In this document: in pieces, positions 4,058 through 48,921 of the stretch
Layout: every line of letters begins with the position of its first letter
Position numbering within the stretch: the first letter of the stretch is position 1
From: Sedimentisphaerales bacterium
GTDB taxonomy: Bacteria; Planctomycetota; Phycisphaerae; Sedimentisphaerales; Anaerobacaceae
DNA: 64,000 bases
NCBI GenBank assembly: GCA_963662565.2
Contig: CAXXXG010000008.1
Span: 3,614 to 67,613 of the forward strand
Direction of reading: 5' to 3'
Position numbers and translations under genes: made by a program
Notes under the pieces: model-generated
Database searches by the model: none
Told to the model about the DNA's origin: nothing
What the model saw: the letters and a program-made list of their open reading frames with translations, nothing else

Positions 4058-4300
4058 TCAACGGTTATGCAAACAATGTAATAGTTCGTGATACAGACGG
4101 GCCGCCCGGTTTACCTCCTCCCATGAGATCGATTCATCACGCGTATGGGCCTTGGCCAACTGACCGGGCCCTAGAATAATGGGCTTGCAGTTCACATTCC
4201 AGAGGAGATTGGCATCGGAGTGACTGTGAAATGAACCGATCTCGTAGCGTGTGAATTTCATAGCCACCTCAATCTTTCGGGCGATCATGGTTATAAACAA
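4058..4300 (-). pseudogene. C-terminal remnant of an ArgE/DapE-type M20 deacylase
   Basis: ...PIILGPGQLAKAHTRDESISWEEVNRAARLYHELLHCL matches the extreme C-terminus of acetylornithine deacetylase-like enzymes (GPGS..QAH.pDE). Only about 65 aa of homology, with no upstream catalytic part. Confidence 0.45.
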
Positions 4301-4730: not shown

Positions 4731-5537
4731 ATGATTGCTATCGCGTCATTATTGATTGTGCTTATGATGTCGTTACTCATAACCCGAGTGGCGACCATGG
4801 CCTTAACGTTAACGGGGATGTCGCAGGAGGTAGCGAAATTCCAAGCGAGATCGGCTTTCACGGGTGTGGGATTTACGACCCATGAGGCAGAGGCCATTCT
4901 TTCGCACCCGGTGAGGCGGCGAATCATTATGTTGTTAATGCTGCTGGGGAATCTCGGCGTGGGCGCGGTGGTGGCCACTTTGATGCTGTCGGTCATGCAG
5001 ACGGCCGAGTCGGATCTTTGGTGGGTAAAGCTGTTGAGTTTGGTGGTGGGCCTGATGTTACTGAGTCTGGCAGCGAACAACCGACGTCTGGAACGACATT
5101 TAAATCGCGTTATTGCCTGGGGATTACGCCGTTGGAGTAATTTGCCCGTACGGGACTATGTCGCCCTGCTTCAATTACAGGATGGTTATGGAGTCAGCGA
5201 ACTCCTGGTTGAATCCGCCGATTGGTTAGCAGAGAAGACCTTGATCGAACTAAAGCTGCCGCGAGAAGGTGTGTTGGTACTGGGAATCAAGCGTACCACC
5301 GGTGTGTATCTCGGTACACCAACAGCAGAGACAGAGGTTCATGCGGGTGACACATTGATTCTATACGGTCCGGCCGAACGTATTGGGGAGCTTGATCAAC
5401 GCAGTCGAGGGAGCAAGGGAGATGTGGCCCATCGCGAGGCCATAGAAGAGCACCAAGAGGGTTTAGAAGCTCAAGTGAAGATCGACGATCAGAGGGACGA
5501 ACCAAACAAGGCAACCACATCGAACGACTTGCCTTAA
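4731..5537 (+). CDS. membrane protein with C-terminal TrkA-C (RCK_C) domain
   Basis: Two or three N-terminal TM helices, then ...VSELLVESADWLAEKTLIELKLPREGVLVLGIKR...VHAGDTLILYGP, typical of TrkA-C. Confidence 0.65.
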   Translation: MIAIASLLIVLMMSLLITRVATMALTLTGMSQEVAKFQARSAFTGVGFTTHEAEAILSHPVRRRIIMLLMLLGNLGVGAVVATLMLSVMQTAESDLWWVKLLSLVVGLMLLSLAANNRRLERHLNRVIAWGLRRWSNLPVRDYVALLQLQDGYGVSELLVESADWLAEKTLIELKLPREGVLVLGIKRTTGVYLGTPTAETEVHAGDTLILYGPAERIGELDQRSRGSKGDVAHREAIEEHQEGLEAQVKIDDQRDEPNKATTSNDLP

Positions 5538-5627
5538 GGGGACCTCTGATACCATTGACACGAAATACTTTTGGACCTAAGTTTACCGTGAGTTCATTTG
5601 AGACCTCAGGTAGAGTCTTCTGCTGTA

Positions 5628-7076
5628 TTATGGCTTTGGGCTCCACGTGTAATCGGCACCAATGACAGTGATGCGGTTGTTGACCTCGCGGGTGCCCTCG
5701 GTTAGCAGGGCGACGCGGTCGGCTTCACTTCGCTGGCCCCAGGTATTTACGCTGCCGGTCAGGGTGACGGTGGCGTCGGTGACTGAGATCGTAATTCGAT
5801 CGGCAACCCAACGCGTGGCCCAGTTGGCTTCGAGATGGGTTCGAATACGACCCTCTAAAACCGCATCGGTATACACACCTGAGGGGTTGACCGTCAGATT
5901 GTTCACCACTTGACGGATGCCCCGCACCGGCGCAATGACGTCCATAACCTGTGTTTTCTCGTAAAGCGTATTGACGGACCCGGCCAGGATTACCGTGCCT
6001 CCTTGTACGTAAATCTTGATGTTCTGGGAGTCGAGGTAGGTGGTCAAATTGACCGCCCGGCGCACATCCGTCCCGATGGCTTCGTCCGAGCGGTTTTCCA
6101 CATCGACCTTCAGATCGTTGAGCACCCAGCCCACACCGATGATTTCACGGGCCAGTTGTTCGGCGAGTTGGGCCTGATAATAGCTCGGGACCGATCCGCT
6201 GAGGGTGACAACACCTTGGTCTACTTTCAGTAAGAGTCGTGAGGAATCCAGGTAGACGTGCTGTTGGAGTGCCCGGCGTACGGACTCCTGGAGTTCCTGG
6301 TTACTCGGGGTGGGAAGGATACGACGGGGGCTGTTCTCCTGCCACCACTGTACGGTCAGCTTATTGTCTACGCCCTTGACGTACAGAATGTTGAGTACGA
6401 CGCGGCCGGCGCGTTCTTTTTGGTAGGCATTGCCCACTCGCCCTTCCAGGATCACGATACCGTTCCGAACGGAAGCCGAAATGGGTAGGCCACTGAGATA
6501 AATATCCCGATCCAAGAGAATCAGCACGTCGCGTTCGATCTCCCCATCGGTTCGAGGGGATCTGGGTAGGATGGTCAGTTCGTTGCGGAGTTGCTTGACC
6601 CCCGGCACCTGACTGACACGTAACTCGACCTCCTGGCGTTCGCTCCAGGATGCGACCTCGCCGGTCAGGGTGATGATGCCATTGATGAAATGGACCCCGA
6701 TAACGGATGAGGTTGGGGTGCGGTATTCAGCGAGACGCCGCTGTATGTCGATCAGGAGGTCTTCCTCCGATCGCTGGGGGCCTTCAACCACGAGATTGTT
6801 GATGACCCCCAGAACCCCATTGATCTTGCGGGCTTCGTTACCGGCATAATTCTTTCCCGCCAGACTGCCGACCTTTCCATTGAGCGTAACGATCCCCTCG
6901 GAGGTTTGGATATCAACCTGGGTGGTGGTGATACGCGGATTCTCGCTAAAGGCCTCGGCCACCCAGAAGCTGATCGTGGTATCGCTGGGGCGTTCTTGGG
7001 CAATCGCGTTCAGGTTGCTCAGCAACATAAGGCTCAAAGCGAACGATGAAAGAGTGTTGTGGAGATGGGTTGTCAT
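5628..7076 (-). CDS. secreted/periplasmic protein with six tandem BON domains
   Basis: Signal peptide, then six repeats of the G.VTL.G.V.....(x)..V.GV..V.N.L.V pattern. Confidence 0.8.
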   Translation of the reverse strand: MTTHLHNTLSSFALSLMLLSNLNAIAQERPSDTTISFWVAEAFSENPRITTTQVDIQTSEGIVTLNGKVGSLAGKNYAGNEARKINGVLGVINNLVVEGPQRSEEDLLIDIQRRLAEYRTPTSSVIGVHFINGIITLTGEVASWSERQEVELRVSQVPGVKQLRNELTILPRSPRTDGEIERDVLILLDRDIYLSGLPISASVRNGIVILEGRVGNAYQKERAGRVVLNILYVKGVDNKLTVQWWQENSPRRILPTPSNQELQESVRRALQQHVYLDSSRLLLKVDQGVVTLSGSVPSYYQAQLAEQLAREIIGVGWVLNDLKVDVENRSDEAIGTDVRRAVNLTTYLDSQNIKIYVQGGTVILAGSVNTLYEKTQVMDVIAPVRGIRQVVNNLTVNPSGVYTDAVLEGRIRTHLEANWATRWVADRITISVTDATVTLTGSVNTWGQRSEADRVALLTEGTREVNNRITVIGADYTWSPKP

Positions 7077-7149
7077 GTTGACGACTCCTTTCGGGTAAAT
7101 AGCGTCGTTGTCATGCCCTTGTGGGGTTGAAATGAGTGATGAATTTACC

Positions 7150-8259
7150 TTACCCGTGATAAAAAATCAAAACCAGATCGATGACGAATAACAGGACGAT
7201 TGTGGCTTCCATCGTAACCATAAACAGATCCGTACGATCCTGTTGAATCAAGTGGTAAAGGTCGGCCAAGGTACGCTGTTTTTGATCCGTAGTCTTTTGC
7301 CAATCCTCCAGATGAAAACGACTGGATAGGGCCTGATATATACGCGCCAGATGCCAGTCACCGAAAAACTTGGTGATGTTGGATAGTTCGTCACTGAGCC
7401 GAGATAGATCCACGCTGATTTCGCGTAGTTCCTTGTGGATGGCCCGGCCACTACGCAGGTTCAGCCGAGCTACATCACGATAAGCCCGTTCGCTGGCACT
7501 GTCCAACAGGCGATCGTAAATCCCGAGTTCCAGCAGTTGCACATTGGCGACCTCCATGATGTGCAGCACTTCGGCCGCATCGTCCGAATCGCCCAGTATA
7601 AGGGCCGCATCCCAGTCGATGACCACCAGATCCTGATCGTAATAACTCAGATCGTATTGGGTGGACTCGTCGATTTCTTGTTGGGACAGACGCTGGGGTT
7701 CGGGCTCTTCGGTCAGGAGCCCGGCGATGGCACGACGCTGTTGATCCAACCAGTCGGTGGCGGCTAGATCGGAAGACATCGGTTGAAAATGAAAGACGGT
7801 ATAGGCCTCGCTGGGACCCAACTGCTCGACCGGACGGACGCAGTGGGGTCCGAGGTCCTGCATGATCGCCTGCCCCAGGCTCAGAGCGAGTTGGCCGACG
7901 GGACCGTCTTCAGCACCATGGCTGTGGGTGTCCACTAAATGATCCCAGTCCTGTTGAACGAAGGGGACGTGGATGCAGAGGCTGATGGCTCCAATGTTGA
8001 AGACCTTGACCGTGCAAGTGACCTCAAGAGATTGTCCTTCCAGGGTGACTTTCTGGTCGGGCAAATGCACCAGGGCCGGTCGATAGAAGAAGGGTTGGCG
8101 AGGACTGCGTTTGGTCGTGCACAGGTTGTACTCCTGCACGGTTCGACCCAGCAAGGTGGTCAGCGAACCACGTTTCATATCGTAGGCGACATCGAATGCA
8201 TAGATGTAAACGATACTGCCGTTGTAACGTTCCAGCGAATGGTTGGATGGGGTGTTCAT
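7150..8259 (-). CDS. DUF155/RMD1-like protein with C-terminal TM helix
   Basis: The pattern (VYIYAFDVAYDM, VKVFNIGAISLCIH, long helical region, terminal TM) resembles the YagE/RMD1 family. Starts 15 nt after the upstream ligase gene. Confidence 0.4.
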   Translation of the reverse strand: MNTPSNHSLERYNGSIVYIYAFDVAYDMKRGSLTTLLGRTVQEYNLCTTKRSPRQPFFYRPALVHLPDQKVTLEGQSLEVTCTVKVFNIGAISLCIHVPFVQQDWDHLVDTHSHGAEDGPVGQLALSLGQAIMQDLGPHCVRPVEQLGPSEAYTVFHFQPMSSDLAATDWLDQQRRAIAGLLTEEPEPQRLSQQEIDESTQYDLSYYDQDLVVIDWDAALILGDSDDAAEVLHIMEVANVQLLELGIYDRLLDSASERAYRDVARLNLRSGRAIHKELREISVDLSRLSDELSNITKFFGDWHLARIYQALSSRFHLEDWQKTTDQKQRTLADLYHLIQQDRTDLFMVTMEATIVLLFVIDLVLIFYHG

Positions 8260-8274
8260 TGTTGTTCAGATTCT

Positions 8275-9825
8275 TTATATGGACGAGGATGGGGTCATTG
8301 TTTTGGTCCAAATCTGTTTGGGATCTCCATGATCATAGAAATCGACAACCTCGGCTTCGAGGATGTACCCGAGTCCACGATAAAAGGCTTGAGTGTTGTG
8401 ATAATCCGATCGTCCGGACGTTTCGATGACTACCCGATGGCCACCATGGGTTTCAATGTGATGTTCGGCATGTTCCATCAATATTCGTCCCAGACCTCGT
8501 CCCTGGTGCTCGGGTGCCACACCGATCCAGTAGATATCCCAGGTACTTACCGTACAGGGGGTTGGGCCGCAACAGATCCATCCCATGGCCTCGTCGTTTT
8601 GGCAGGCGACCCAGGATTGATAGTGTCCCTGCGGGCCGGTAGCATGGGCCTCGTCCAGAACTTCGCAGGCGATGGTCAGTTCGTTGGGGCGAAACAGATC
8701 TGTACGGGTCAAGGCTGACAGAACGGTTTCTCGATCGCCGGATTGGCTGCGACGAATGGTGATATCCCCAACGGAAACGGGAGGAGGAGGGGCGATTGGA
8801 GATTTCAGACGAGGCAGGTGCTCAAGGGCGTTGTAGAGACACAGGCGAATGAATTCGTGGTAGCCGATGTCACGGGCTGCCAGGGCCGCGGCAAAACCGG
8901 CGTCTGGGGAGATGTCGGGATTGGCATTGACCTCCAACACATAGGGGGACAGCTCTGCGTCCAAACGAAAATCCACACGGCAATAATCCAGGCATCCTAA
9001 GGCCCGACAAGAGGCAACGGCCAGTTCACGGACACGACTTTCGACCAGCACCGGTAACGGCGCGGGAATGATGCGCGGGGTGTGACGATACTCGAAAGAA
9101 TCCTCCAGCCACTTGGCCTCATAGCCCACGATGCGGGGACGATCCGGAGTAAAGGCGGAAAAGTCGATTTCCGCCAAGGGCAGGACCTGAGCCTCGTCGT
9201 GTCGCCAGAGTACCGAGACATTGAGTTCCCGGCCCTCGATATACTGTTCGATCAAGACCGGCTTGCCCAGGGTTTGATGCAAATGGCGGACTCGTTGTTG
9301 CAGGGCCTTACCGGCTGTCGGGATCACACTGTCACGGTCGATGCCCTCACTGGCATCCGTCCCCACGGGCTTGACGATATAGGGGCCGGGAAAAAGGTCG
9401 GCTTCATGGATAAGGTGGTTGGGACTGACACGAATGGCCCGCGGACAGGGGATGTCGGCGGCCCGTAGCACAGCCTTACTCTTCCATTTGTCGAGGCTCA
9501 GCAGCAGTCCGGCAGTACTGTTGCCGGTACAGGCTTTCCCCATCGCGGTGCACAGGGCCGGAATCCAATTGGCCTGTTCCGGATTCTCGGGAAAGCCTTC
9601 CACCAGATTAAAGACGACATTCTCCCCGGCACAGGCCAGGGCGTCCGGAATATGTTGCAGGTTATCTACGCCCACGGAACGCACCGGGACATGCAACTTG
9701 GCACAGGCCTTGGTTACGGCTGCGACTTCCTCCAACACACCGGCCTCACTCTCGGCAAATCCTCCCGCTGCTTGACCGGTTGGACGATTGTACAGAATCA
9801 GCACGCCTTTGATAATGTCGAGCAT
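8275..9825 (-). CDS. D-Ala-D-Ala-ligase-like ATP-grasp fused to a C-terminal GNAT acetyltransferase
   Basis: N-terminal Ddl-type ATP-grasp: DKWKSK, YIVKPVGTDASEGI, IEQYIEGRELNVSV, RVDFRLD..YVLEVNANPD. C-terminal GNAT: WIGVAPEHQGRGLGRILMEHAE. An alternative GTG start lies at 9804. Confidence 0.8.
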   Translation of the reverse strand: MLDIIKGVLILYNRPTGQAAGGFAESEAGVLEEVAAVTKACAKLHVPVRSVGVDNLQHIPDALACAGENVVFNLVEGFPENPEQANWIPALCTAMGKACTGNSTAGLLLSLDKWKSKAVLRAADIPCPRAIRVSPNHLIHEADLFPGPYIVKPVGTDASEGIDRDSVIPTAGKALQQRVRHLHQTLGKPVLIEQYIEGRELNVSVLWRHDEAQVLPLAEIDFSAFTPDRPRIVGYEAKWLEDSFEYRHTPRIIPAPLPVLVESRVRELAVASCRALGCLDYCRVDFRLDAELSPYVLEVNANPDISPDAGFAAALAARDIGYHEFIRLCLYNALEHLPRLKSPIAPPPPVSVGDITIRRSQSGDRETVLSALTRTDLFRPNELTIACEVLDEAHATGPQGHYQSWVACQNDEAMGWICCGPTPCTVSTWDIYWIGVAPEHQGRGLGRILMEHAEHHIETHGGHRVVIETSGRSDYHNTQAFYRGLGYILEAEVVDFYDHGDPKQIWTKTMTPSSSI

Positions 9826-21973: not shown

Positions 21974-22120
21974 GAACCCCGCTCAGACGCCGCGGGGGCT
22001 TATAAAAAGAAATCGGGGAAAATGTGACAATTTGTTGAGTTAATTTGTATAAATAGACTTTTAAAGAAATCGCTTCGTTGCTTAGGGTATAGGAGATTCC
22101 CAAATTCCATTCTACATGAC

Positions 22121-22636
22121 TCAACGATTCCATGACGTGTTAAAATCTAGGCGTCTTATTAATTCGAAAGTGTTAATGCTGTTAATTCCTAAAGAAGCAC
22201 AAACATCAGGGACATGTTTATTGGCTCCTTGCCTACTAGGTTTTGATGCCTCTTCTGTGACAATGCACCGATTTTTGACATCCAACAGTGCATAAGAAAT
22301 TAAGAAAGGATCCCGCCCCATTTTTGCAATGTCGTCATCAGTTGGATTGGGCAAATAGCCGTTGTATACTACATGAGAGACAAATTGAGACTCAGCCTCT
22401 TCCTTTAATCGTAAAGCATCCTTCACTTCCGTTGTCGCTGCCCAGGCGGCAAGTTCATCTTGTTCTCCTTGCTTAGATTTAGTGTCCTTAAATTCTTCGT
22501 AAATCTCAATCGGAATGGCTATATTTTCACGCTGTCCTTGGTATATTAACCATTCCCAAAATTCCGGCACACGAGAAAGTGGATAGTACCAATTTTTGGC
22601 ATTAATTAATACATTGGCATCCAGTAAATAAAGCAA
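22121..22636 (-). CDS. DUF4411-family PIN-like nuclease
   Basis: N-terminus MLYLLDANVLINAKNWYYP...VPEFWEWL is characteristic of DUF4411. Lies in an AT-rich region. Confidence 0.7.
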   Translation of the reverse strand: MLYLLDANVLINAKNWYYPLSRVPEFWEWLIYQGQRENIAIPIEIYEEFKDTKSKQGEQDELAAWAATTEVKDALRLKEEAESQFVSHVVYNGYLPNPTDDDIAKMGRDPFLISYALLDVKNRCIVTEEASKPSRQGANKHVPDVCASLGINSINTFELIRRLDFNTSWNR

Positions 22637-22647
22637 TGCAGGCTTCC

Positions 22648-23841
22648 CTATACGGCATTACTAAGTTCAAAAATCTTATGTACTTTCAAGGGCCTTACGC
22701 CAAGTAGAAAACCAGCTCTAGTAGGGGTAAGAACACCCGACGAAGTCATTCTTTCTGTAAATCGAATTAAGGCTTCTCCAAGACTGTGTCTACGTACAAC
22801 AAAATAGCTTGGGCCGCCCTCTTTTTGTTTCTTTTGATTTCTCGTTTTGTCGCGATAATCAAACCACTGTTTGTCGAAATGCTCATTTAGAGTCAACCAT
22901 AAATCATGGGTGACTATCCCCTTTCTGTATAGGCGATAGGAAACAAGAGCACTACTTACGTTTTTATCTCTTGCAAAACTTGTTATAACTTCCGTTAAAG
23001 CAATAAACTCCACGTTGCCGCTAAATTTGAGATTTCTGAGTTCATTCTCGGGAAGCAAGATTTGGCTTGCTACGTCACTGCAAAATTTTTCGACCTTCTT
23101 TTCTGTTTTAGCCCCGCTGACACCGGTTTGCCCTAGCCACAGATGTGCGATTTCATGCAAAAGAGTAAAAGACCATGCAGCTTTAGAGTCTAAATCGTTG
23201 ATAACAACAAAAGGTGCAATCTCGTCAGATAATACAAATCCTCGGAATATCGACGTGCTAATATTGGTATGATGAGATCCGAGATTGCCTATTAGGAGAA
23301 CAAAGATCCCCACATCTTCTGCCAGGGCCCGCAAATACTTAAAGGCATCATGCGTTGTTTGGCATTGTTGATATGTGTTTAAATCAAATTTTATCGATTC
23401 GCAAATAGAAGATGCCACTTGAGAAACGCCTTGTTTGATATCTGCACAGCCAATGAATTCTAACCTTTGTTCTTCATCTTCCTCAATCAGTGTTTCCCTT
23501 AGGAGACTCTGGCGTGCTTTGATGTCTCTGATTAGTACATCTACATAGGCATTTTCGGTTGGGACAACATTGACAGGTAGGGTGCGAAAATCTTCACCTC
23601 TGTCACCCCGTAGCGGTTGTTCTTCCATATATAAAGTCAAGAGGGGCTTTTTATAGAGCTTCGCCATTTTTACAAGCAACGACCGGGAAGGATCTTTTTC
23701 CTGGCTTTCAAAAGCTAGCAATTTATCAACCGCACTGATTGTTTTGCTATCTGTGAGTTGAAGCTTTATGGAGGCTTCTTCGACAGACAATCCTGCAGAT
23801 TTTCTCGCCCAAATCAATATTTTGGGATTCACATTAGGCAT
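22648..23841 (-). CDS. XRE-type HTH fused to an ImmA/IrrE (COG2856) zinc metallopeptidase
   Basis: N-terminal HTH (ILIWARKSAGLSVEEASIKL) and HEIAHLWL HExxH motif. Lies 11 nt upstream of the DUF4411 gene. Confidence 0.75.
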   Translation of the reverse strand: MPNVNPKILIWARKSAGLSVEEASIKLQLTDSKTISAVDKLLAFESQEKDPSRSLLVKMAKLYKKPLLTLYMEEQPLRGDRGEDFRTLPVNVVPTENAYVDVLIRDIKARQSLLRETLIEEDEEQRLEFIGCADIKQGVSQVASSICESIKFDLNTYQQCQTTHDAFKYLRALAEDVGIFVLLIGNLGSHHTNISTSIFRGFVLSDEIAPFVVINDLDSKAAWSFTLLHEIAHLWLGQTGVSGAKTEKKVEKFCSDVASQILLPENELRNLKFSGNVEFIALTEVITSFARDKNVSSALVSYRLYRKGIVTHDLWLTLNEHFDKQWFDYRDKTRNQKKQKEGGPSYFVVRRHSLGEALIRFTERMTSSGVLTPTRAGFLLGVRPLKVHKIFELSNAV

Positions 23842-24135
23842 ACATTACTCAGTCCAACAAACACGACCACCACTCACAGTACCTTCTCTTGCCACTCTCT
23901 AGTGTAACCCAAAAAGGTAATCTTATAAAATACTACCATACGTTTTTTCGGACAAGTTAACAGATATTAGCCAGGCATTTCTGGCAAAGATACAGTTTAT
24001 ATCTACAAGTCAGTAAAAACACACAAAATATAACCACTGACGGCTCTGAAGAAGGGCTAGACCTTAAAAAAAGTTAGCGGTATAGACTTAAGCCCTTTTG
24101 AGCTTTAAAAATGCCAAGGCTTCCCGGATCAAACC

Positions 24136-38927: not shown

Positions 38928-40724
38928 TCAACTATCTGGATATTCTCCGTCACACGCCCACCACACAACCGGATACACTGTGCCCCAAGACTTACAATCT
39001 GAAGGACATAACAGCCACTCCCGAATCAGATAAGGAGACTCATAACAGTCGGGCACATCCTCGCACTGATAGTACCAAAAGTATTGAATTTCTTTACCAG
39101 AACATACCATATTGACCTCTATACATTGCTGAGGATTCATTGATATCTGGTTGGGTATGGTACATCCATCGTAGCCCTCGCCTCCCAAGATGGAGGCCTG
39201 GACATCCAATGACAACTCCGCCTGTTCGTTGATTTCAAGGGCTTGATCATTTGATAAGAGCAAAACAATGAATTCGTCTTGATTCCCAAAGTGGGCTTTC
39301 TTGAGAGGTCGATAGAAGGTGTTACTGGTCAGATCGATGACCCAGGCTTCCGTGGTATTGACATAATCGAGCAAAACAAAGTGCCCCTTGCCCGGACGAT
39401 AGAGTATGGCCTGTACCCCTTCCAAGGCCTCCATTTCCTCCCAGGTCAAAATGACTGCACGTGCATTGATCCCCAGGCCTTGGGCGATCTTAGTCATATC
39501 CAATAAACTCGTCAGGCCATCACTGGCCACCAGATCAGTGGCCTCGGTCCAATCCAGGGTCTTGCCCAATTGCTCTATAGCATAACGCAGATGAACAGAG
39601 GCGCAATTCTGGAGCAACGATTCGTTTTCATTGACAACCGCCAGGCGTTCAGCCAACAGCATCTCAGGATCCACCGTGACATTGTGATAATAATACAAGG
39701 GCCCAGTGGATTGGGGATTGGTGCGCATCACATGGGTATTCGTGGCCAACTGGGCCTGAAAACGGCTGCTCACAGGAGTCACCGCACTAACGGATAAGGC
39801 CCAACGATGGGAATTGAGTAAACGTCCCTCAAGATCCTGATGCTCTATATAAATCGTGGTCGGCACCCAACGTTCGCCAACCTGGACATAATCGGAACAC
39901 ACGGACCGATCCATCCAATTGAGTTGGATTCCTTGCCACTCCAACGGTGCATAATCTAATGCGGGATCCAAAGTCATGGTATAGGTCACACCGCTATCCA
40001 GGGCCAGCGTCAAATCAACGACCGTTTGACCCTCCGAACTCGTTTCCTGGGCCAGGATTTTCGCTGACTGAAGATCTACCAGAGACAAATCACCCTGCCC
40101 CCAACTGATAAAACCCGCCAACAAAGGAGCCAGAGCCAACTCCGGTGCCATGTCCTGATCCTCGATCACCGCATTGGCCACGTCATGGTAATAGCGGGTG
40201 TAGGCTTGTCCATCCCAATAAAAACTTCGTAAGCGACTCTCTGGCAGTCTAACATGATTGGTTTGAATATTATCCACCAGTGTCCCTGTTGGTATAATCG
40301 AATCCTCACGTTCAATTATCTCTATTTGATAATGATATCGACCTCCACGGATCGCGACCTCTTCCTGGGTAACCTGGGTATATTCATTAAGCCATACGTG
40401 ACGAACATTAAAAGGGATAGCTTCCAAAAAATCCTTTTGGGTTTCTTCTGTGAGTTGGGGCTTGTCATCAAGTGCCAAGTAGGCGGCAATCTCCTCCTTG
40501 ATACGTGACTCAACCCAATCGACATCCGTGGTCTTGGGGGCTTGGTACTCAACATGTTTGGCCTTGACTGACCCGGAAGTGATCCATCCATCTGAGGTGT
40601 TTTCCACCAATTGAGAGAGCAGGCTGTCGATCTCAGCTTGTGTCAACTGACGATCCGCATACAGACAGGGGGTTAATAGGCAGGAAATCAGTGCGCATAA
40701 AAGTAGTGCTCGGGGTGTCTTCAT
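38928..40724 (-). CDS. secreted protein with C39-like cysteine-peptidase domain and Cys-rich tail
   Basis: Signal peptide MKTPRALLLCALISCLL. LQNCASVHLRYAIEQLG (Cys) and GKGHFVLLDY (His). Ten Cys in the last ~85 aa. Confidence 0.55.
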   Translation of the reverse strand: MKTPRALLLCALISCLLTPCLYADRQLTQAEIDSLLSQLVENTSDGWITSGSVKAKHVEYQAPKTTDVDWVESRIKEEIAAYLALDDKPQLTEETQKDFLEAIPFNVRHVWLNEYTQVTQEEVAIRGGRYHYQIEIIEREDSIIPTGTLVDNIQTNHVRLPESRLRSFYWDGQAYTRYYHDVANAVIEDQDMAPELALAPLLAGFISWGQGDLSLVDLQSAKILAQETSSEGQTVVDLTLALDSGVTYTMTLDPALDYAPLEWQGIQLNWMDRSVCSDYVQVGERWVPTTIYIEHQDLEGRLLNSHRWALSVSAVTPVSSRFQAQLATNTHVMRTNPQSTGPLYYYHNVTVDPEMLLAERLAVVNENESLLQNCASVHLRYAIEQLGKTLDWTEATDLVASDGLTSLLDMTKIAQGLGINARAVILTWEEMEALEGVQAILYRPGKGHFVLLDYVNTTEAWVIDLTSNTFYRPLKKAHFGNQDEFIVLLLSNDQALEINEQAELSLDVQASILGGEGYDGCTIPNQISMNPQQCIEVNMVCSGKEIQYFWYYQCEDVPDCYESPYLIREWLLCPSDCKSWGTVYPVVWWACDGEYPDS

Positions 40725-41231
40725 GATCAGATCCCTCATCTTAAGATTGACGAATTTGTTATCATGCCAGCCAAGCGCACTTTCTGGTATCTATAACTAA
40801 AGAGAGTGACAGACGATTAAAAGTTTGCATCAAAAGCGGACATTCGGAGAAAATTATCACCACACATCAATTTGAGCTTCCATCACCCACTTGATATAGA
40901 CAGGCAGTGAGATAAATAACACCGCCACATATGAGAGTTAGAAAAACTCAACGAGACGACACTGTTAATTTAGGTCATCTTTTATTATTCGTTCTCGTCC
41001 TCCCCATTCCGCACCCATAACGTCACCCAGAGAAACTTCACTTTTTTCACTCAATTCGGAGCTTTTTTTTTGTCCCTCGTCCCATAAAAGTATAAAGTTT
41101 TACAAAGTCGGACGCCGACAATGACTAATAACGTATCGCTATTATTAGTGTTGAAAAAAGGGATTTTTTCGCTCAGCTTCTTGGGGTAACTTGGGGCGGC
41201 GAAATGGAACCATGAGCTGGAGACCAATGGA

Positions 41232-42596
41232 ATGAGAACGATAGCAGTGGTAAACCAGAAAGGTGGCTGCGGGAAAACAACCGTATCGATCAACCTTGCC
41301 AGTGCCCTGGCACAAGCCAACAAACGGGTTCTGCTCGTCGATATGGACCCCCAATCACACTGTGCCGTGGGATTGGCTGTACCCGAGGAACAAATTGAAC
41401 AAAGCATCTACGACGTCCTGATCAGCAAGAGTCGCAATGAACCCATTCGCCTCTCCGAGATCCTGTGGCAAATCAGTGACCGCCTGGAATTGGCTCCTGC
41501 CAGTATCGACCTGTCCGCTTTTGAGCAACAGATGACTGGCGTCCCTGATCGTGAATGCTGCCTCAAGAACGTCCTGGACGAGGTTAGTGACAGTTATGAC
41601 TATGTCGTGGTCGATTGCCCGCCTGCTGTGGGCCTGTTGACCTTCAACGCCCTCCGGGCTGCTTCGGACGTGGTCGTCCCGGTCGAAACCGGTTACTTCG
41701 CCCTACATGGACTAAGTAAACAACTCGAAACCCTGGGCATCCTGTGCAAACGTTGCCGTCAGCAAGTCGATGTCAAGGTCCTGGCCAGCATGTATGACAT
41801 CCGCACCAAGATGGCCCGCGAGATCCTGGCCGAACTGAGAACTCATTTCTCGGATCGCATGCTCAAGACCGTGGTCAATTTCAATACCAAGATCAAAGAA
41901 GCCGCCTCCTTTGGCCAACCCATCAACGAATACGATCCGGCCAGCAAGGGTCAACAGGACTTCCAAATGCTGGCCGAAGAGATCATGGGCACCGAGGCCA
42001 AGCAGGACAGCAAAGCCCTGGTCAACACCCTAGCCGACCAGCTCGATGCCATTAGCAGTAGCGCCAACGAGCTATTGGAAGAGGCCAACCAACAAGAAGT
42101 CGAGATCCAAATCGAAAACACCCTGGATATTGCCGAACCTCAAGAGGCCCTCGAAAAGGTCGAACCCCTGGCTGAGGCCGTGATGACCGAGGAACAGGCA
42201 CAGGTCGAAGAACTCCAACCGGAACCGGAGATTGAAATCATTGCCGAGACCGAAGAGGCTCAAGAAACTGAACCTCAAGTTCAGGCCATGGATACCGAAG
42301 CCAAACTTTCTGAATACTATGGCGTTAGCCAGGCCCATGATGCAGTCATGTTCGTGAGCCTGTACCCCAGAGCAAATAACGTTCAGCTCGCAGGTGACTT
42401 CAACAATTGGCAACCCCAGGACACCCCCATGGAACGTGTGGGTGACAGTGGGGTATGGCAGGCCAAATTGAACCTGGGCAACGGCCTCTATCGCTACCGC
42501 ATCGTGGTCGATGGTCAATGGCAACAGGATCCCTATAACGAGCGAACCGAGATGAACCCATTCGGTGAGATGAACTCACTGGTTGAGGTCAAGTAA
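41232..42596 (+). CDS. ParA/MinD-family ATPase fused through an acidic linker to a CBM48/AMPK-beta-type glycogen-binding domain
   Basis: Deviant Walker A NQKGGCGKTT and DCPP. C-terminus: VMFVSLYPRANNVQLAGDFNNWQP...GVWQAKLNLGNGLYRYRIVVDGQWQQDPYN. Confidence 0.75.
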   Translation: MRTIAVVNQKGGCGKTTVSINLASALAQANKRVLLVDMDPQSHCAVGLAVPEEQIEQSIYDVLISKSRNEPIRLSEILWQISDRLELAPASIDLSAFEQQMTGVPDRECCLKNVLDEVSDSYDYVVVDCPPAVGLLTFNALRAASDVVVPVETGYFALHGLSKQLETLGILCKRCRQQVDVKVLASMYDIRTKMAREILAELRTHFSDRMLKTVVNFNTKIKEAASFGQPINEYDPASKGQQDFQMLAEEIMGTEAKQDSKALVNTLADQLDAISSSANELLEEANQQEVEIQIENTLDIAEPQEALEKVEPLAEAVMTEEQAQVEELQPEPEIEIIAETEEAQETEPQVQAMDTEAKLSEYYGVSQAHDAVMFVSLYPRANNVQLAGDFNNWQPQDTPMERVGDSGVWQAKLNLGNGLYRYRIVVDGQWQQDPYNERTEMNPFGEMNSLVEVK

Positions 42597-42626
42597 ACTC
42601 GCTTATCAAGACTAAAAAGAGTCAAA

Positions 42627-42658
42627 GCCACCCAAGCTAGCTTGGGTGGCTTTTTTTT
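42627..42658 (+). terminator. rho-independent terminator
   Basis: GCCACCCAAGC-TA-GCTTGGGTGGC perfect palindrome followed by T8. Confidence 0.85.
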
Positions 42659-42821
42659 GTATCAACATCGGAAACCCAATGATAGGCTTCGCGAACGTAT
42701 CCTTGTTCCATCCAATGAAAATTGAGCCTGCGGCTCAAGGCGGGATTCGCTGACACGGTAAGCTTGGCTTGTCAAACCCGATTGGATCTTTGATCCAATC
42801 GGGGTCTCATCCGCATCTATA

Positions 42822-44938: not shown

Positions 44939-47900
44939 TTAGAGGTCAGACGATGGCTCATACTCTGCCATGGCCTGAGAAACCAGATCAGAAAGTTGTT
45001 CGGCCTGATCCGTATCGGCCGTCATCACAACGTGTCCCTCTGGATCAATCAAGGTAAACTTTTTGTCATACTGATCCAGAAGCTCCGGCATTTCATTGAT
45101 ACGTTCAATTTCAACATAGAGCACCTTCCATGGGATCTCGTGATAGGCGATGAAATAATCAAAGGGGGGACGTAAATCAATCACCGACATGGTCCAAAGC
45201 GACAGGCTTAAGATTTCAAGTTTATCTTTATCGTACTGTTGGTGTACCTGTTTGAGGTAAGGCAACACGGAGTGAACATAGTTCATCTCCTTCATAGGGC
45301 CACCAGATTCGACGAGTACAAACTTACCACGACAATCCTTTAAGGTTACGATCTTGCTAGAGTGACTGGGCAAGTCGAAACCTGGGGCTATTTGACCTTC
45401 ACGAACCGGTAGCCTCTCATGTAATTCAATCGCACCCAGGTCATCAGTATTTTCAGTGATCTCCACACCACTTTTAACCGTGCGGTACATGCCCCTATCC
45501 TGCAGGTCCAATTCTATGATAAGGTCGTAAAGTCCCGGCTGAACCCCGGAGATCAGGACCTGCCCATCCGCATCAACCTCGCCAGTATAGGTCTTCATAT
45601 CCATCATTAAGGGCATGATTCTTCGAACATAAGCCTGTCCCTCTTCACTTTGCATAAATGTTTCATTCCATTGTTGCTTTTCCTGGGCCGTCATACACAA
45701 CAGATTTTCCGGTAACATCACATCAATGGAGGTGATCGTTCTTAGATCTAAATGTGTTCGCAGGACCACTACTGCCTCTTGATGATCTGTAATGGCATCA
45801 TTAAGCAACTGCAGTACGATTTCACCGCCATTTCCCTCTAGCATTAAAGTCTCAGTGCATCCTGCCTCGACCGAAATAATCTGGCTAGGCATGGACTTTC
45901 TCTGACCATCAACCTCTTCAACGCGTGCAACCGCGTAGGCTCCCGCCGAAACGCGTTCAAAAACAGCCACACCATTGGCATCGAATTCCATATCCCAATC
46001 GACGACAACCCATTGATCGCGACTGGTCATATAGGTCCTATCCAAATGAACCCGACTACATGATTCACCTTCGGGTGCTAAAACCTCAATACATGCCCAG
46101 GGCTCCAGATCAATGCGTGTCAACGAAGGAACAAGAGCAGGATCTATGCGATAATACCCCAGGGGATGTGTAATAAACAATTCATTGGGTTCCTGCATTC
46201 CCGGCAAATCAAACTGCCCATTGGGATCCGTCATGGTTTTGGTGTTTAGGGGGGCAAACACCTCACCAGCCTGTAAGCGAATGGATCGTTCTTCGGTGAC
46301 CTGAATCACCTCCGCTCCAACAGCCGGCATTCCATCCGGGAGATATACGGTTCCAGTCAAAGAACGGAGTTCACCGGGAACCAAGGCAATGGAATGTTCC
46401 AACTCCGTACCATCATTCATCACACACGGACTACAATAGGGTAAATACCCGGGAGCCTCAACTCGAACCATGACCCCTGCAGCATTCATCTCCACCTGAT
46501 ACTGCCCGTCTACACAGTAAAGAGGATTAGTATTCCAGGAGGGGGTATCTCCATGCTGGTCAACTTCGGCCTTATAAAGATAAAATTCCGGAATGGACTG
46601 TCCGCTCTCAGCATCAACCACCGTCCCCTTGAGCATCCCAGATTGATAGAGGATAACGGTATAAGGCCTCTCCCTTGTCTCAATAAGAACATTGTCATTC
46701 GTGACATAACCGCCTTTACGCACCCTAAAGAAATGCTTGCCTTGAGGAAGATCCTCCACTCGGGCCCATCCTTGAGCATCGGTCTGCATAGAAGGACGCG
46801 ATGGTGAAATACCGGATCGCTCTTCAATAATCCAATTGGTCCAATAGATATTGGCACCTTCGAGTGGCGATCCACTTTGATCCAATACTTGTATTGCTGC
46901 CGTTTGCCCTGAACCTAGAGTCAACACAAGTGGTTCTTGATCCTTTTGAACATCTACCAGTTGTCGATCGGGCGCAAATCCCGAAGCAAAAGCCGCTACA
47001 ACCCAATCTCCTGGATGAACGTGCTTAAACACAAATATTCCGTTGGGATCTGTAGTCACCTCAGTCATCCCCCCAGCATAATTACCCCTCCATTTCCACG
47101 CCTTTACTTCAACATCCACTAGGGGATACCCAAGCTCATCCTGCACTAACCCCGTCAAGGTGAGCCCCGACCAAACCGTTAAAACATGCTCGCCAGCCAT
47201 CAATCGATCCAAGCGGGTCTGTTGTCCACTTGCAAAGATATAGTTCGAATTACGAGAACTCATTGAAACATTAGACGCCCCCGGCAACATCTCTTGGCTA
47301 AACCAATATCCTTGTTTATCCGTCTCCAAAGTCAAATACTGCCAACCAAAACTCACATTACCATGCGAATGTCGAGCAACGATGCGAGGTTCGGCTACAG
47401 AATAACCCACTAGGAAGTCGGGCATGGGATGCCCATTAGGATCTATAACTCGACCACTGACGTCGATGCCCTTGAACAGTTGGATTTCGTGGGTCTTGGG
47501 CCAGGGCTCAATATTCCCCCTGCCTATTTGATAGGTCACCTGCAACGGACAATAGCCAGCCTTGAGAATAAAGACCGTCAGAGAATACAGTTGGTCATGA
47601 CTCACATCAAGCTGACACTTCCCATCTTTGTCGGTCACTTCCCTCACATCCCCCAAGGGCCACCCTGACCGAACTTGAATATCACAACCGGACACTGGCT
47701 CCCCTGTGTCACGATCCACAAGGCATAATTCCAACACCCCTTCTTTCTCATGCACAGCATCGTGATAGGTCACTTCATTCGTTTCGTGCGAGTGAACCTG
47801 TGTTCCCAGATCATTCGCTTCCTGCAACATCAACCGTTTTCGAATTCGCGTTATAGCTGATGTTATGGCCTCAACAACAGCTGAATCCGATTCCTTATCC

Positions 47901-48376
47901 AACAGTCTCTGTAGTTGCTTCAAGGCAGATAAACTGCCGACCTGACCTAGATAACCGGCTACCTGAATCCGCGTAGTATCCTGGCCCTCCTCCAGCAAAG
48001 CCAACAAGGCGGATTCGTCTTGACGATCAAACGCAGCTTGAGCCCGTTGTTGTTCATGGGCCAACAGAGTTTCCTGGTCGATGGGCGTGTCTCGTTCCTT
48101 CACAACTTCGGGTTTCGGGATTATTTCCCTTTGCTCATCGCCACTGAGGCGATGGGCGATCATGAGCAGTCCCACGATTAAAACCGCGGCAACGGCCCAT
48201 TTGGTAACCGGGCTTTCCATAATGATTCTCCACAACGGTCGTTGGACGACCGATTTGTCTTTAACGGCTTGGTTGAGTGCAGCTTCGGCCGCAGCGAGAA
48301 TGCGGCGATCCGCATCCTGAGTCGGGGATAAACGCAGGTCCTGAGCCAGCCTTTCAATGTCACGCGGCGTTCTCAT
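44939..48376 (-). CDS. giant single-pass anti-sigma-like protein (HEAT-like repeats, multiple CarboxypepD_reg-like Ig domains, degenerate thioredoxin-fold C-terminus)
   Basis: 4-nt overlap with the upstream ECF sigma gene and a TM helix at about aa 55-75. Repeated '...G.V.D..G.P...A.V' beta-sandwich units. AhpC/TSA-like GQIAPGFDLP...GKFVLVE without CxxC. Confidence 0.6.
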   Translation of the reverse strand: MRTPRDIERLAQDLRLSPTQDADRRILAAAEAALNQAVKDKSVVQRPLWRIIMESPVTKWAVAAVLIVGLLMIAHRLSGDEQREIIPKPEVVKERDTPIDQETLLAHEQQRAQAAFDRQDESALLALLEEGQDTTRIQVAGYLGQVGSLSALKQLQRLLDKESDSAVVEAITSAITRIRKRLMLQEANDLGTQVHSHETNEVTYHDAVHEKEGVLELCLVDRDTGEPVSGCDIQVRSGWPLGDVREVTDKDGKCQLDVSHDQLYSLTVFILKAGYCPLQVTYQIGRGNIEPWPKTHEIQLFKGIDVSGRVIDPNGHPMPDFLVGYSVAEPRIVARHSHGNVSFGWQYLTLETDKQGYWFSQEMLPGASNVSMSSRNSNYIFASGQQTRLDRLMAGEHVLTVWSGLTLTGLVQDELGYPLVDVEVKAWKWRGNYAGGMTEVTTDPNGIFVFKHVHPGDWVVAAFASGFAPDRQLVDVQKDQEPLVLTLGSGQTAAIQVLDQSGSPLEGANIYWTNWIIEERSGISPSRPSMQTDAQGWARVEDLPQGKHFFRVRKGGYVTNDNVLIETRERPYTVILYQSGMLKGTVVDAESGQSIPEFYLYKAEVDQHGDTPSWNTNPLYCVDGQYQVEMNAAGVMVRVEAPGYLPYCSPCVMNDGTELEHSIALVPGELRSLTGTVYLPDGMPAVGAEVIQVTEERSIRLQAGEVFAPLNTKTMTDPNGQFDLPGMQEPNELFITHPLGYYRIDPALVPSLTRIDLEPWACIEVLAPEGESCSRVHLDRTYMTSRDQWVVVDWDMEFDANGVAVFERVSAGAYAVARVEEVDGQRKSMPSQIISVEAGCTETLMLEGNGGEIVLQLLNDAITDHQEAVVVLRTHLDLRTITSIDVMLPENLLCMTAQEKQQWNETFMQSEEGQAYVRRIMPLMMDMKTYTGEVDADGQVLISGVQPGLYDLIIELDLQDRGMYRTVKSGVEITENTDDLGAIELHERLPVREGQIAPGFDLPSHSSKIVTLKDCRGKFVLVESGGPMKEMNYVHSVLPYLKQVHQQYDKDKLEILSLSLWTMSVIDLRPPFDYFIAYHEIPWKVLYVEIERINEMPELLDQYDKKFTLIDPEGHVVMTADTDQAEQLSDLVSQAMAEYEPSSDL

Positions 48377-48921
48377 GGTTGCACCCCTTCCTGCTGCAAA
48401 AGCTGCTGCAATTTGCTGATCGCATATCGATAACGGCTCAAGGCCGTCTTACCGGATACCTGTTGCAGTGTCCCGATCTGGCGAAAGGTCATGTCCGCCT
48501 GGGCGTGTAGCACAAAGGCCTCACGCTGCTCTTGGGGCAGTTGAGCCAATACCCGTATCAAGGCCTGGCCTTCTTCACTGAGTTGCAAAGCCTGCTCCGG
48601 ATTGCCATGATTCGCAGCCAAGGACAAATCCTCGACCGAGCAACCCGCTTGACGAACCGAGCGTCGCAACTGGTCACGAGCTCGGTTGATAACGGCTGTA
48701 ACCAGGTAACCCTTGAGGTTGCCCCGGATGGTGAGTGTCCCGGCCTTACGCGCCAAGTGTACAAACACATCCTGTAGACAATCCTCAGCCAGAACCCCAT
48801 CACCCAACACCGACACGGCCATGGTATAGAGGTCCGTGCGATACTGGGTGTAGATCCGGCGCAAGGCTTCCGGACAACCCCGGTTCAACTGCTGAATCAA
48901 TTTTCGATCGTTACACTGCAA
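48373..48921 (-). CDS. ECF-type RNA polymerase sigma factor
   Basis: Region 2 (DCLQDVFVHL...NLKGYLVTAVINRARD) and region 4 (EAFVLHAQADMTFRQIGTLQQVSGKTALSRYRYAISKL). Confidence 0.88.
   Translation of the reverse strand: MQCNDRKLIQQLNRGCPEALRRIYTQYRTDLYTMAVSVLGDGVLAEDCLQDVFVHLARKAGTLTIRGNLKGYLVTAVINRARDQLRRSVRQAGCSVEDLSLAANHGNPEQALQLSEEGQALIRVLAQLPQEQREAFVLHAQADMTFRQIGTLQQVSGKTALSRYRYAISKLQQLLQQEGVQP

Follow-up and report, generated by a model that had tools for sequence, protein, structure and literature searches.

An AMPK-beta-like CBM48 module fused to a ParA ATPase in Phycisphaerae, a candidate tether between cytoplasmic alpha-glucan and the nucleoid

The ParA-CBM gene and its surroundings

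The window, a stretch of 64,000 nucleotides, carries at positions 41232..42596 of the plus strand a single open reading frame of 454 amino acids plus stop codon, which joins a ParA ATPase domain to a CBM48 domain, both scoring above their Pfam cut-offs. The N-terminus of this protein (ParA-CBM), MRTIAVVNQKGG, agrees with that of its homologues, and a Shine-Dalgarno-like GGAGA (41219..41223, plus strand) was read in the sequence 8 nt 5' of the ATG. The upstream neighbor is divergently oriented (38928-40739, minus strand; ORF call), and the intergenic region that separates the two genes (40740..41231, plus strand) is the presumed promoter region. The initial annotation had described it as an AT-rich promoter; its composition bears out the first part of this description (40.9% GC, compared with 53.5% for the window), but a scan of the upstream region revealed no sigma-70 consensus site. 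Downstream, an intrinsic terminator with a 13-bp stem, a 4-nt loop, and a T-run occupies 42624..42660 (plus strand; terminator scan and sequence), the scan itself reporting the stem plus T-run at 42624-42653, and a tRNA-Ser gene is convergent with ParA-CBM. With a divergent gene on one side and a convergent tRNA gene on the other, the ParA-CBM gene is monocistronic, as had been proposed initially along with the terminator.

The genes surrounding ParA-CBM are ordinary housekeeping genes in the window and at 20 other loci, and no synteny is conserved across families, the neighbors being LpxK, Maf, HldE, and AroB. Within its clade the gene is single-copy and core-like. The absence of parB or another partner, already remarked upon in the initial annotation, holds at a wider scale: parB is not adjacent to the gene and the one good ParB that the genome has is encoded on a different contig, a McdAB-like small partner gene is absent from the locus, and no partner gene for ParA-CBM was found in the window's own genome. 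Because ParA-CBM has neither a signal peptide nor a transmembrane segment, its CBM faces the cytoplasm. A search of PADLOC-DB with the protein returned only a 27-bit match over the P-loop (residues 4-64), and its neighbors gave nothing beyond a match of a TadA deaminase fold to a dCTPase model; a defense island at this locus was considered and found no support from PADLOC or from the housekeeping neighbors.

Domain structure and conservation

Residues 1-255 (41232..41996, plus strand) form a Soj-type ParA ATPase domain, which confirms the N-terminal deviant-Walker-A ParA of 255 residues that had been recognized at the outset. The Pfam model AAA_31 matched residues 1-179 (E 8.8e-52), and CbiA matched too. 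The best sequence matches among solved structures were ParA 8ray (E 1e-51) and Thermus thermophilus Soj 1wcv (E 3.8e-45). When the predicted structure was compared by Foldseek, the ParA part superposed on Soj with a TM of 0.86 and gave values of 0.82-0.86 against 9a6n, 8ray, 2bek, and 6iub; the McdA structures 6non and 6nop were also among the fold matches. The deviant Walker A, K10-GGCGKT-T17 (41259..41282, plus strand), includes the signature N-terminal lysine, and the protein also has the Walker B Asp and, following strand 2, the catalytic Asp of Walker A'. D39 aligns with the catalytic Asp that was mutated in T. thermophilus Soj D44A (2bek) and Hp Soj D41A (8jmj). Conservation across the family was assessed in 136 aligned sequences, consisting of the window protein and 135 representatives from clusters at 50% identity; K10, K15, D37, D39, and D128 were kept in all 136, leaving the ATPase motifs intact family-wide. 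In the alignment, R191 falls opposite the Arg of the T. thermophilus Soj 'MYDGRT' stretch and is the equivalent of the Soj DNA-binding Arg; it is invariant in 76 near homologues and present in 60 of the 136 sequences family-wide. The ParA domain by itself has a charge of -8, and the whole protein is acidic. Chromosomal Soj/ParA proteins (1wcv/2bek, 6iub/8jmj, 8ray) are the closest known relatives (E 1e-51 to 1e-42, TM 0.82-0.86), whereas ParA-CBM is not linked to parB, belongs to a separate clade, and possesses an extra helix, an acidic spacer, and a CBM48.

The segment that follows the ParA domain, residues 256-362 (107 amino acids), contains 30 D/E and 4 K/R for a net charge of -26. The initial annotation had depicted an acidic linker of ~115 residues; the acidity stands, but residues 256-291, the first ~36, form a conserved amphipathic helix (41997..42104, plus strand; AlphaFold2 and conservation in 76 homologues) and are not plain linker. 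AlphaFold2 predicted one helix across residues 239-291 (pLDDT about 75). A heptad pattern, with spacing read from the sequence, comprises V264, L267, L271, I274, A278, and L281; L267, I274, A278, and L281 are invariant in the 76 homologues. The remainder, residues 292-362 (42105..42317, plus strand), is assigned as a disordered acidic spacer on the basis of low pLDDT and composition, with pLDDT below 50 and 19 D/E versus 1 K/R for residues 293-353. This spacer is 6-69% identical to those of homologues and variable in length; across the family, the CBM match starts a median of about 130 amino acids (range 4-282) beyond the end of the ParA domain. AlphaFold2 predicted no contact between the CBM and the ParA domain (linker pLDDT below 50). 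A conserved helix, K358-L359..Y362-Y363-G364, is located directly before the CBM.

The C-terminal residues 363-454 (42318..42593, plus strand) constitute an AMPK-beta-like CBM48, as established from Pfam, alignment to 1z0n, a structural model, Foldseek, and conservation. The initial annotation had identified a CBM48/AMPK-beta module here and had made this proposal dependent on the C-terminus matching CBM48 models, which it does: AMPK1_CBM matched residues 381-454 (E 6.9e-12, 45.8 bits versus a cut-off of 26.8) and CBM_48 matched residues 364-435 (E 1.2e-10, 42 bits versus a cut-off of 22.4). The C-terminal domain alone matched the AMPK beta1 glycogen-binding domain 1z0n with an E of 7.6e-8. 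The model of the isolated domain (pLDDT 92.7) has the AMPK-beta fold; its top 50 PDB fold matches in Foldseek were all CBM48 modules of GlgB or AMPK beta, and it aligned with 1z0m at a TM of 0.88 and an rmsd of 2.0 A. For the AMPK beta CBM structures together (1z0m, 1z0n, 4yef), the identity is 30-32%, the TM 0.88, and the rmsd 1.3-2.0 A. The settings of the two modules differ, with that of ParA-CBM joined by a disordered tether to a bacterial P-loop ATPase and that of AMPK beta located inside a kinase regulatory core.

Alignment to 1z0n predicts W393, R423, W430, F444, G445, and N448 as ligand residues, and ParA-CBM retains AMPK beta1 W100, K126 (as R), W133, G147, and N150. These sugar-binding residues are intact across the family: W393 (equivalent to AMPK beta1 W100) is retained in 135/136 aligned sequences, W430 (W133) in 131/136, and G445 (G147) in 130/136, while position 423 (K126) is R in 109, K in 24, and Q in 3 of the 136. 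Glycogen binding by the AMPK beta1 CBM is abolished by W100G and K126Q and weakened by W133L and G147R (PMC6274970), and the residues that it requires for binding are the most conserved positions in the CBM of ParA-CBM. Identity to homologues amounts to 30-90% for the CBM, compared with 40-97% for the ParA domain, and only the linker diverges fast (6-69%). By these sequence comparisons, the CBM evolves at about the pace of the ParA domain.

Distribution, other ParA proteins, and glycogen genes

The initial annotation had pointed to the taxonomic spread of the architecture as a check on the proposal, and this spread turned out to be wide in the class and rare elsewhere in Planctomycetota. At a threshold of E <= 1e-23, ParA-CBM matches were found in 106/151 Phycisphaerae genomes and 17/22 families, nearly all frames among the matches listed being 350-740 amino acids long; outside Phycisphaerae, 3 genomes matched in a 201-genome Planctomycetota sample. 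The architecture recurs in metagenome-assembled genomes labeled Omnitrophota, Desulfobacterota-like, and Eisenbacteria, so that beyond Phycisphaerae its distribution is scattered over several phyla. The concern that the fusion might be an assembly chimera was dispelled by more than 100 full-length homologues with identical Pfam architecture on independent contigs, and by its presence in complete chromosomes. The gene tree required 11 family-label changes, which is the lowest number possible, compared with 17.4 in shuffles, and none of 200 shuffles was equally low. Because the tree follows taxonomic families, the sequences indicate that ParA-CBM was inherited vertically through most of Phycisphaerae.

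A second Soj-type ParA clade ('group A') was present in the window's own genome and in 10 of the 11 others that were examined, and it was recovered also where a genome has a single Soj-type ParA. The ParA domains of the fusions form their own clade (support 99/99). ParB was never encoded near any ParA in the 11 class genomes examined. The possibility that ParA-CBM is the sole or chromosomal ParA with an extra domain was rejected in view of the group A distribution and the support for the fusion clade. Its phylogenetic placement makes ParA-CBM an accessory ParA that is separate from the widely conserved Soj-type ParA.

In a relative that lacks the fusion (G117), a 98-residue AMPK1_CBM protein heads a same-strand glycogen cluster whose members include an alpha-glucan phosphorylase, a GT5 glycogen synthase, and a GH13+CBM48 enzyme, and pairings like this were also found in G010 and G137. 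These stand-alone CBM proteins of glycogen operons in fusion-less relatives are closely related to the CBM of ParA-CBM. The window's own genome encodes a GH57-GT5 fusion, three more GT5 matches, and four GT35 phosphorylases; canonical GlgB, GlgC, and GH13 were not found in it by TIGR01515 or motif scans. Across the class, 115/151 genomes have GT5 and 73/151 have a GH13 branching-like enzyme of any kind. In these 151 genomes, the joint occurrence of fusion and glycogen genes was not discriminating, with GT5 and GH13 also present in fusion-less families, and some fusion-bearing class genomes showed neither GT5 nor GH13 by the models used. Since glycogen genes occur in families without the fusion, ParA-CBM is dispensable for glycogen metabolism.

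Candidate functions of ParA-CBM

We consider it about an even chance (probability of roughly 0.5), from what the sequences and models convey, that ParA-CBM tethers or positions cytoplasmic alpha-glucan on the nucleoid under the control of an ATP switch. The ParA domain would bind ATP and close into a sandwich dimer, which would sit non-specifically on nucleoid DNA in a Soj-like manner. The conserved heptad helix would exit the last ParA helix and lead into a floppy acidic spacer of about 70 residues, at the end of which the AMPK-beta-type CBM48 would grip the alpha-1,4/1,6-glucan of cytoplasmic glycogen-like particles. Many ParA-CBM molecules on each particle would create a multivalent, ATP-switched bridge from storage glucan to chromosome, with ATP hydrolysis freeing individual links; the particles would therefore remain with the nucleoid, spread over it, and be shared between daughter cells, and they would not drift or coalesce. 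We infer that ParA-CBM binds both DNA and glycogen and that it may affect granule position; stimulation of its ATPase would have to take place in a genome where no partner gene was found. Indirect support for glycogen as the cargo is provided by the ligand residues, the operons with sister CBMs, the glucan synthases and phosphorylases, and the accessory status of this ParA. Several observations count against the proposed nucleoid tether, including the weak family-wide conservation of R191 (60/136 in the alignment) and the overall acidity of the protein; the missing GH13 GlgB and lack of an obvious GlgC in the window's own genome, which bear on whether it makes branched glycogen granules, also count against this reading, as does the dispensability of the fusion for glycogen metabolism.

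Related arrangements are known for other cargos. In the known logic of ParA cargo systems, a separate cargo-bound partner stimulates the ATPase, and the covalent attachment of cargo in ParA-CBM, by departing from this logic, also weighs against the nucleoid-tether reading. At face value, a ParA that is fused to its cargo adaptor and has no partner is better described as a regulated tether than as a ParA/partner ratchet. McdA/McdB, PpfA, ParC, and MipZ are likewise accessory ParA/MinD ATPases that serve non-DNA cytoplasmic cargo; systems of the McdA/McdB type employ a separate cargo-bound, ATPase-stimulating partner, whereas ParA-CBM has a fused module and no partner gene. PhaM/PhaF-type proteins bridge PHB/PHA granules to the nucleoid, so daughter cells inherit the granules. 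These phasin-like proteins bind DNA passively and have no ATPase switch, and their polymer and folds differ from those of ParA-CBM; by analogy, the concept that might be shared is a storage-polymer granule tied to chromosomal DNA for inheritance. McdA is described as using the nucleoid as a matrix (PMC13556221).

To our knowledge, the organization and inheritance of bacterial glycogen are essentially unstudied; positioning or tethering proteins are known for carboxysomes, PHB granules, plasmids, and chemoreceptor arrays. The family would offer a direct handle on glycogen inheritance, with one gene, two well-understood domains, and clear point mutants for sugar binding (W393A, R423A, W430A) and the ATPase (K15A, D39A), and it would show whether a ParA can function when its cargo adaptor is covalently attached and a partner is absent.

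More tentatively, ParA-CBM could be a self-contained ParA machine, made of a single polypeptide, that would actively space glycogen particles along the nucleoid and partition them. CBM-anchored molecules would coat the particle, their ParA heads binding and releasing DNA in an ATP cycle, and the activator would be either the heptad helix 256-291 or the CBM-adjacent K358-L359..YYG helix; such a helix would be concentrated on the particle surface, the cargo carrying both motor and activator. Such a machine, if real, would be without precedent both as a positioning system dedicated to a polysaccharide store and as a ParA system in which the ATPase itself recognizes its cargo. It is unlikely that the protein senses glycogen status and moves no cargo, its CBM gating a ParA switch that acts on a nucleoid process, e.g., ParB/parS segregation or replication initiation, to couple the cell cycle to carbon stores. 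Soj acts with DnaA in replication initiation in Bacillus subtilis, and the ParA domain of the fusion is Soj-like. The closest module to its CBM is that of AMPK beta, through which glycogen inhibits AMPK (PMC2642990; PMC6274970). All genomes examined have an orphan ParB, which could therefore be addressed by more than one ParA; however, the separate group A ParA is already available for chromosome functions, the long, variable, disordered spacer fits a tether better than an allosteric sensor, and the predicted absence of any CBM-ParA contact also weighs against a sensor. Least probable of the readings weighed is that the CBM-like domain binds another ligand, such as a protein partner or other polymer, or that ParA-CBM scaffolds glycogen-metabolizing enzymes and not granules; its ParA domain would in that case position this alternative cargo. 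Beta-sandwich CBM/E-set folds also serve protein contacts, and both the conserved helix before the CBM and the lack of a GH13 GlgB in the genome would suit this idea, but the glycogen-binding residues of AMPK beta1 are the most conserved in the domain, the top 50 fold matches are all glucan-binding CBM48 modules, and the sister stand-alone CBMs reside in glycogen operons.

The initial annotation was unaware of any description of such a system, a statement that no longer holds. A literature search on ParA plus glycogen positioning had as its sole match a preprint of 22 Oct 2026, in which ParA-CBM appears as the 'CBM-containing system' of clade ConB5, a predicted immune system (bioRxiv 10.64898/2026.10.19.760177). 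It depicts the same fusion of ParA with a C-terminal AMPK1_CBM. The grounds for immunity, purely in silico, were a fast-evolving CBM and a sporadic distribution, and the variants described have either a transmembrane protein that carries a second CBM and is encoded upstream, or an inactive ParA and an REase encoded downstream (bioRxiv 10.64898/2026.10.19.760177). An immune sensor, whose CBM would recognize an infection-associated carbohydrate cue (glycosylated virion parts, fragments of cell wall or capsule, or polysaccharide depletion) and thereby trigger a ParA multimerization that limits the invader, appears improbable to us for the window's clade. Its assignment by the preprint to an immunity-associated ParA branch and its scatter over several phyla outside Phycisphaerae favor such a role, as does a degenerate ParA-like partner encoded downstream in families f10, f11, and f15, which corresponds to the inactive-ParA variant of the preprint. 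In contrast, neither the second-CBM transmembrane protein nor the inactive ParA plus REase is present at the locus or elsewhere in the window's genome, the cytoplasmic CBM speaks against a sensor of this kind, and the single-copy gene stands among housekeeping neighbors, with no PADLOC defense match beyond the P-loop level. The CBM does not diverge rapidly in this clade, its identity tracking that of the ParA domain and its ligand residues being near-invariant, and the gene is not sporadic within the class but vertically inherited through most of it (106/151 genomes, 17/22 families, family-congruent tree). These results give grounds to question the sole published reading, immunity, for a large Phycisphaerae clade.

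Domain structure, conserved residues and gene setting

The ParA-CBM gene (41232-42596, + strand) is a single open reading frame for a 454-residue protein, and the initial annotation's description of it as a lone gene for a ParA ATPase joined by an acidic linker to a CBM48 domain proved accurate by Pfam, structure matches, models and gene setting. Residues 1-250 matched AAA_31/CbiA-type ParA models in Pfam (AAA_31, E 8.8e-52), and the C-terminal region matched both AMPK1_CBM (residues 381-454; E 6.9e-12, 45.8 bits versus a cut-off of 26.8) and CBM_48 (residues 364-435; E 1.2e-10, 42 bits versus a cut-off of 22.4). Sub-threshold NCBIfam matches were to ParA partition ATPases and, for residues 355-443, to the N-terminal CBM48 of GlgB. 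The nearest solved structures were ParA 8ray (E 1e-51) and Soj of T. thermophilus and H. pylori for the N-terminal part, and the glycogen-binding domain of AMPK beta1 for the C-terminal part. The whole protein was modeled with AlphaFold2 from 76 homologues, and the model comprised four parts: the ParA domain, which superposed on Soj/ParA structures with a TM score of 0.86; one long helix (residues 239-291); a disordered stretch (residues 293-353, pLDDT <50); and a confident beta-sandwich (residues 361-454). The CBM modeled separately, with 42 input sequences from several phyla, reached a pLDDT of 92.7 and superposed on 1z0m with a TM score of 0.88 (rmsd 2.0 A, 30% identity). With Pfam scores above the cut-offs and top 50 PDB matches of this model consisting solely of CBM48 modules (of branching enzymes and AMPK beta), the assignment of the C-terminal domain to CBM48 is upheld. 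The linker (residues 256-362) contains 30 D/E versus 4 K/R; its first part is a conserved helix with a hydrophobic heptad (V264, L267, L271, I274, A278, L281) that may form a coiled-coil contact.

We aligned the protein with 135 family representatives. The ATPase motif residues K10, K15, D37, D39 and D128 were each present in 136/136 sequences, and D39 aligned with the Asp replaced in 2bek and 8jmj, both structures of hydrolysis-deficient mutants. The 'MYDGRT' Arg of T. thermophilus Soj aligned with R191; it corresponds to the DNA-binding R189 of B. subtilis Soj. R191 is invariant across the 76 near homologues, yet is found in only 60/136 sequences family-wide, so DNA binding by the ParA part is plausible but not secure. 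HMMER alignment equated W100, K126, W133, L146, G147 and N150 of AMPK beta1 with W393, R423, W430, F444, G445 and N448, respectively. In AMPK beta1, glycogen binding is abolished by W100G and K126Q and weakened by W133L and G147R (review PMC6274970). Among the 136 aligned sequences, W393 was kept in 135, W430 in 131 and G445 in 130; position 423 was R in 109, K in 24 and Q in 3, and position 448 was N in 98 and D in 19. Identity to the window's copy was 30-90% for the CBM, tracking that of the ParA domain (40-97%), and fell to 6-20% in the linker.

The gene is stand-alone. A 492-bp region of 40.9% GC separates it from the divergent upstream gene, GGAGA was read from the sequence 8 nt before the ATG, and downstream lie a terminator with a 13-bp stem (42624-42653) and tRNA-Ser(GGA) and tadA, which converge toward it. 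Rhamnose catabolism genes, a KpsF-like isomerase, an ECF sigma factor, a pectate lyase and tRNAs make up its surroundings in the window. The divergent gene (38928-40739, - strand) encodes a 603-residue secreted protein that is Cys-rich at its C-terminus and has a segment weakly resembling C39 peptidases; it received no confident family assignment. The ECF sigma factor gene (48373-48921) stands directly upstream of a gene for a 1145-residue protein that combines CarboxypepD_reg repeats with an AhpC/TSA-like segment at the C-terminus (whole pair 44939-48921, - strand); the two may be a sigma/anti-sigma-like module. Elsewhere, at 22001-24000, the GC content falls sharply to 0.40 versus ~0.54 for the window, and a 397-aa ORF there (22648-23841, - strand) carries an IrrE/ImmA-like M78 peptidase domain; this region may be a mobile-element or prophage remnant.

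Distribution, descent and relation to the chromosomal ParA

A word-indexed search returned >100 full-length homologues (56-87% identity) of identical Pfam architecture, their named sources being Phycisphaerae, Sedimentisphaerales or Planctomycetota; the fusion is thus no assembly chimera. Exhaustive searching of cluster representatives at 50% identity yielded 3260 clusters at E <= 1e-30. Among the best 150 of these, 135 had both the Walker A motif and the CBM, and the end of the ParA domain was separated from the start of the CBM match by 4 to 282 residues (median 130). One 1812-aa representative (P0157) has 18 separate stretches matching the query's CBM and is apparently one very large tandem array of CBM48 modules of this type.

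When 151 genomes evenly drawn from the class Phycisphaerae were searched with the CBM profile, 106 had a match at E <= 1e-23; the listed matches covered 17 of 22 families, and nearly all of them fell within open frames of 350-740 aa. Outside the class, merely 3 genomes of a 201-genome phylum sample had matches at E <= 1e-22. When one genome per species was scanned, 576 relatives were recovered. The best 80 of the 576 were all MAGs, mostly with Phycisphaerae labels, along with a few Pirellulales, Planctomycetales or Isosphaeraceae and the other-phylum labels Candidatus Omnitrophota, Candidatus Auribacter, 'delta proteobacterium'/Desulfobacteraceae and Candidatus Eisenbacteria. The CBM motifs were kept in all those examined. 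The homologue of a Phycisphaerales MAG (L064, match 986-2410) has an in-frame stop within the CBM (NER*EMNPYG, within the final 300 bases of the match); the gene may be a pseudogene, or the stop may reflect a sequencing error or codon recoding. The maximum-likelihood tree built from 29 fusion proteins agreed exactly with taxonomic families: it contained 11 label changes, the minimum possible, compared to a mean of 17.4 for shuffled labels (0/200 shuffles as low), and the window protein grouped with the other family of its order (support 100/99). Such a pattern is that of a chromosomal gene passed on by vertical descent.

Five Soj-like ParA genes are present in the window's genome, along with one good ParB, whose gene (C28:517179-518141, - strand) is on a different contig from the window with no ParA adjoining. 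ParB was likewise always single and never near a ParA in 11 further class genomes (G110, G007, G048, G051, G136, G117, G044, G134, G109, G097 and G072), seven of them single-contig. Sequence comparison and a tree split the ParA proteins into three: group A (KGGVGKT; 290-370 aa, the tail acidic or proline-rich), group B, which comprises extra ParA paralogues, and the fusion clade (99/99 support), which includes distant metagenomic members. Group A was recovered in 10 of the 11 further genomes, including both genomes with a single Soj-type ParA, as well as in the window's genome (C39:241225-242331), and is likely to be the partition ParA that partners ParB. The window's fusion is an accessory ParA rather than the chromosomal one. 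Nested in the fusion clade is a 358-aa ParA of G109 without a CBM (L059, G109:C2:373000-377000; 1797-2873, + strand), apparently because the glycogen-binding module was lost secondarily.

Alpha-glucan genes and stand-alone CBM proteins

As the fusion protein lacks both a signal peptide and TM segments, the ligand of its CBM must be cytoplasmic. A capacity to make and degrade alpha-glucan is plausible for the window's genome, since it encodes a 917-aa GH57-GT5 fusion (C28 about 678600-681400, + strand, outside the window), three further proteins with a GT5 starch/glycogen synthase domain and four GT35 alpha-glucan phosphorylases. Motif scans of this genome did not find GH13 or GlgC, and the pathway looks unusual because a canonical GH13 GlgB was not found. 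One of the GT5 proteins is 1833 aa long (C37 about 281000-286600, - strand) and also has an amylase-C-like segment; genomes of the same order contain frames of comparable length (1815-1857 aa) with the same GT5 match. GT5 or GH13 branching-like genes did not discriminate between class genomes with and without the fusion.

Stand-alone proteins of 92-140 aa carry a CBM close to that of the fusion (E 1e-14 to 1e-26 versus the fusion profile). In G117, a genome of the window's order that lacks the fusion, the first gene of a tight same-strand cluster (locus L142, G117:C1:228500-239500; 1784-8311, - strand) encodes a 98-aa AMPK1_CBM protein; after it come genes for an 857-aa DUF3417-type alpha-glucan phosphorylase, a 509-aa GT5 glycogen synthase and a 678-aa GH13+CBM48 enzyme. 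Match coordinates indicate the same arrangement in G124. A GT4/GT5 transferase precedes a 96-aa CBM protein in G010, and another lies 1.3 kb from the fusion gene in G137. These small glycogen-binding proteins, which appear unstudied, offer what we consider the best contextual evidence for a glycogen link.

Candidate functions

The initial annotation had regarded the architecture as undescribed. It is already catalogued, with a function predicted in silico, in a preprint of 22 October 2026 that surveys ParA domains in immunity (bioRxiv 10.64898/2026.10.19.760177), and the window gene adds to that family; full-text literature searches turned up no experimental study of a ParA that serves glycogen. 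The preprint argues from 'rapid divergence of the CBM' and a 'sporadic' distribution that carbohydrate sensing triggers ParA multimerisation against invaders, and describes variants with an upstream TM protein bearing a second CBM, or with a downstream inactive ParA + REase (10.64898/2026.10.19.760177). The downstream arrangement probably occurs in three families (f10, f11 and f15), where a 430-640-aa P/A-rich protein is encoded immediately downstream of the fusion gene (L028:9394-10989 and L037:9332-11011, + strand; homologues in L030, L034, L038, L039 and L041). No Pfam model matched this protein, which carries an (L/I)ADLFL(T/S)G motif in its N-terminal part; its profile gave a weak match to a MinD/FlhG-like ATPase (E 7.5e-8), and no partner of this type was found in the window's genome. 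The two immunity arguments do not hold for the Phycisphaerae clade, in which the CBM is conserved and the distribution is dense and vertical. Moreover, the window surroundings point away from a defence island, the neighbours at other fusion loci include LpxK, Maf, HldE and AroB, and PADLOC yielded solely P-loop-level and deaminase-fold matches. An immune sensor is therefore improbable here, and a glycogen tether fits this clade better.

We consider an ATP-switched tether or positioner between glucan and the nucleoid the most likely function, with a probability of roughly 0.5. A sensor of glycogen status that gates a Soj-like regulatory function is a weaker candidate, and a non-glucan ligand or an enzyme scaffold is the least probable of the alternatives. 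The positioning of polysaccharide granules proposed in the initial annotation is supported in part, and the observation behind it is confirmed. The main difficulty for this reading is that known ParA systems require a separate activator bound to the cargo, whereas in this case the adaptor is part of the ATPase polypeptide and the genome encodes no partner. Unless some part of the same chain serves as the activator, the protein may thus act as a regulated tether instead of a ratchet.
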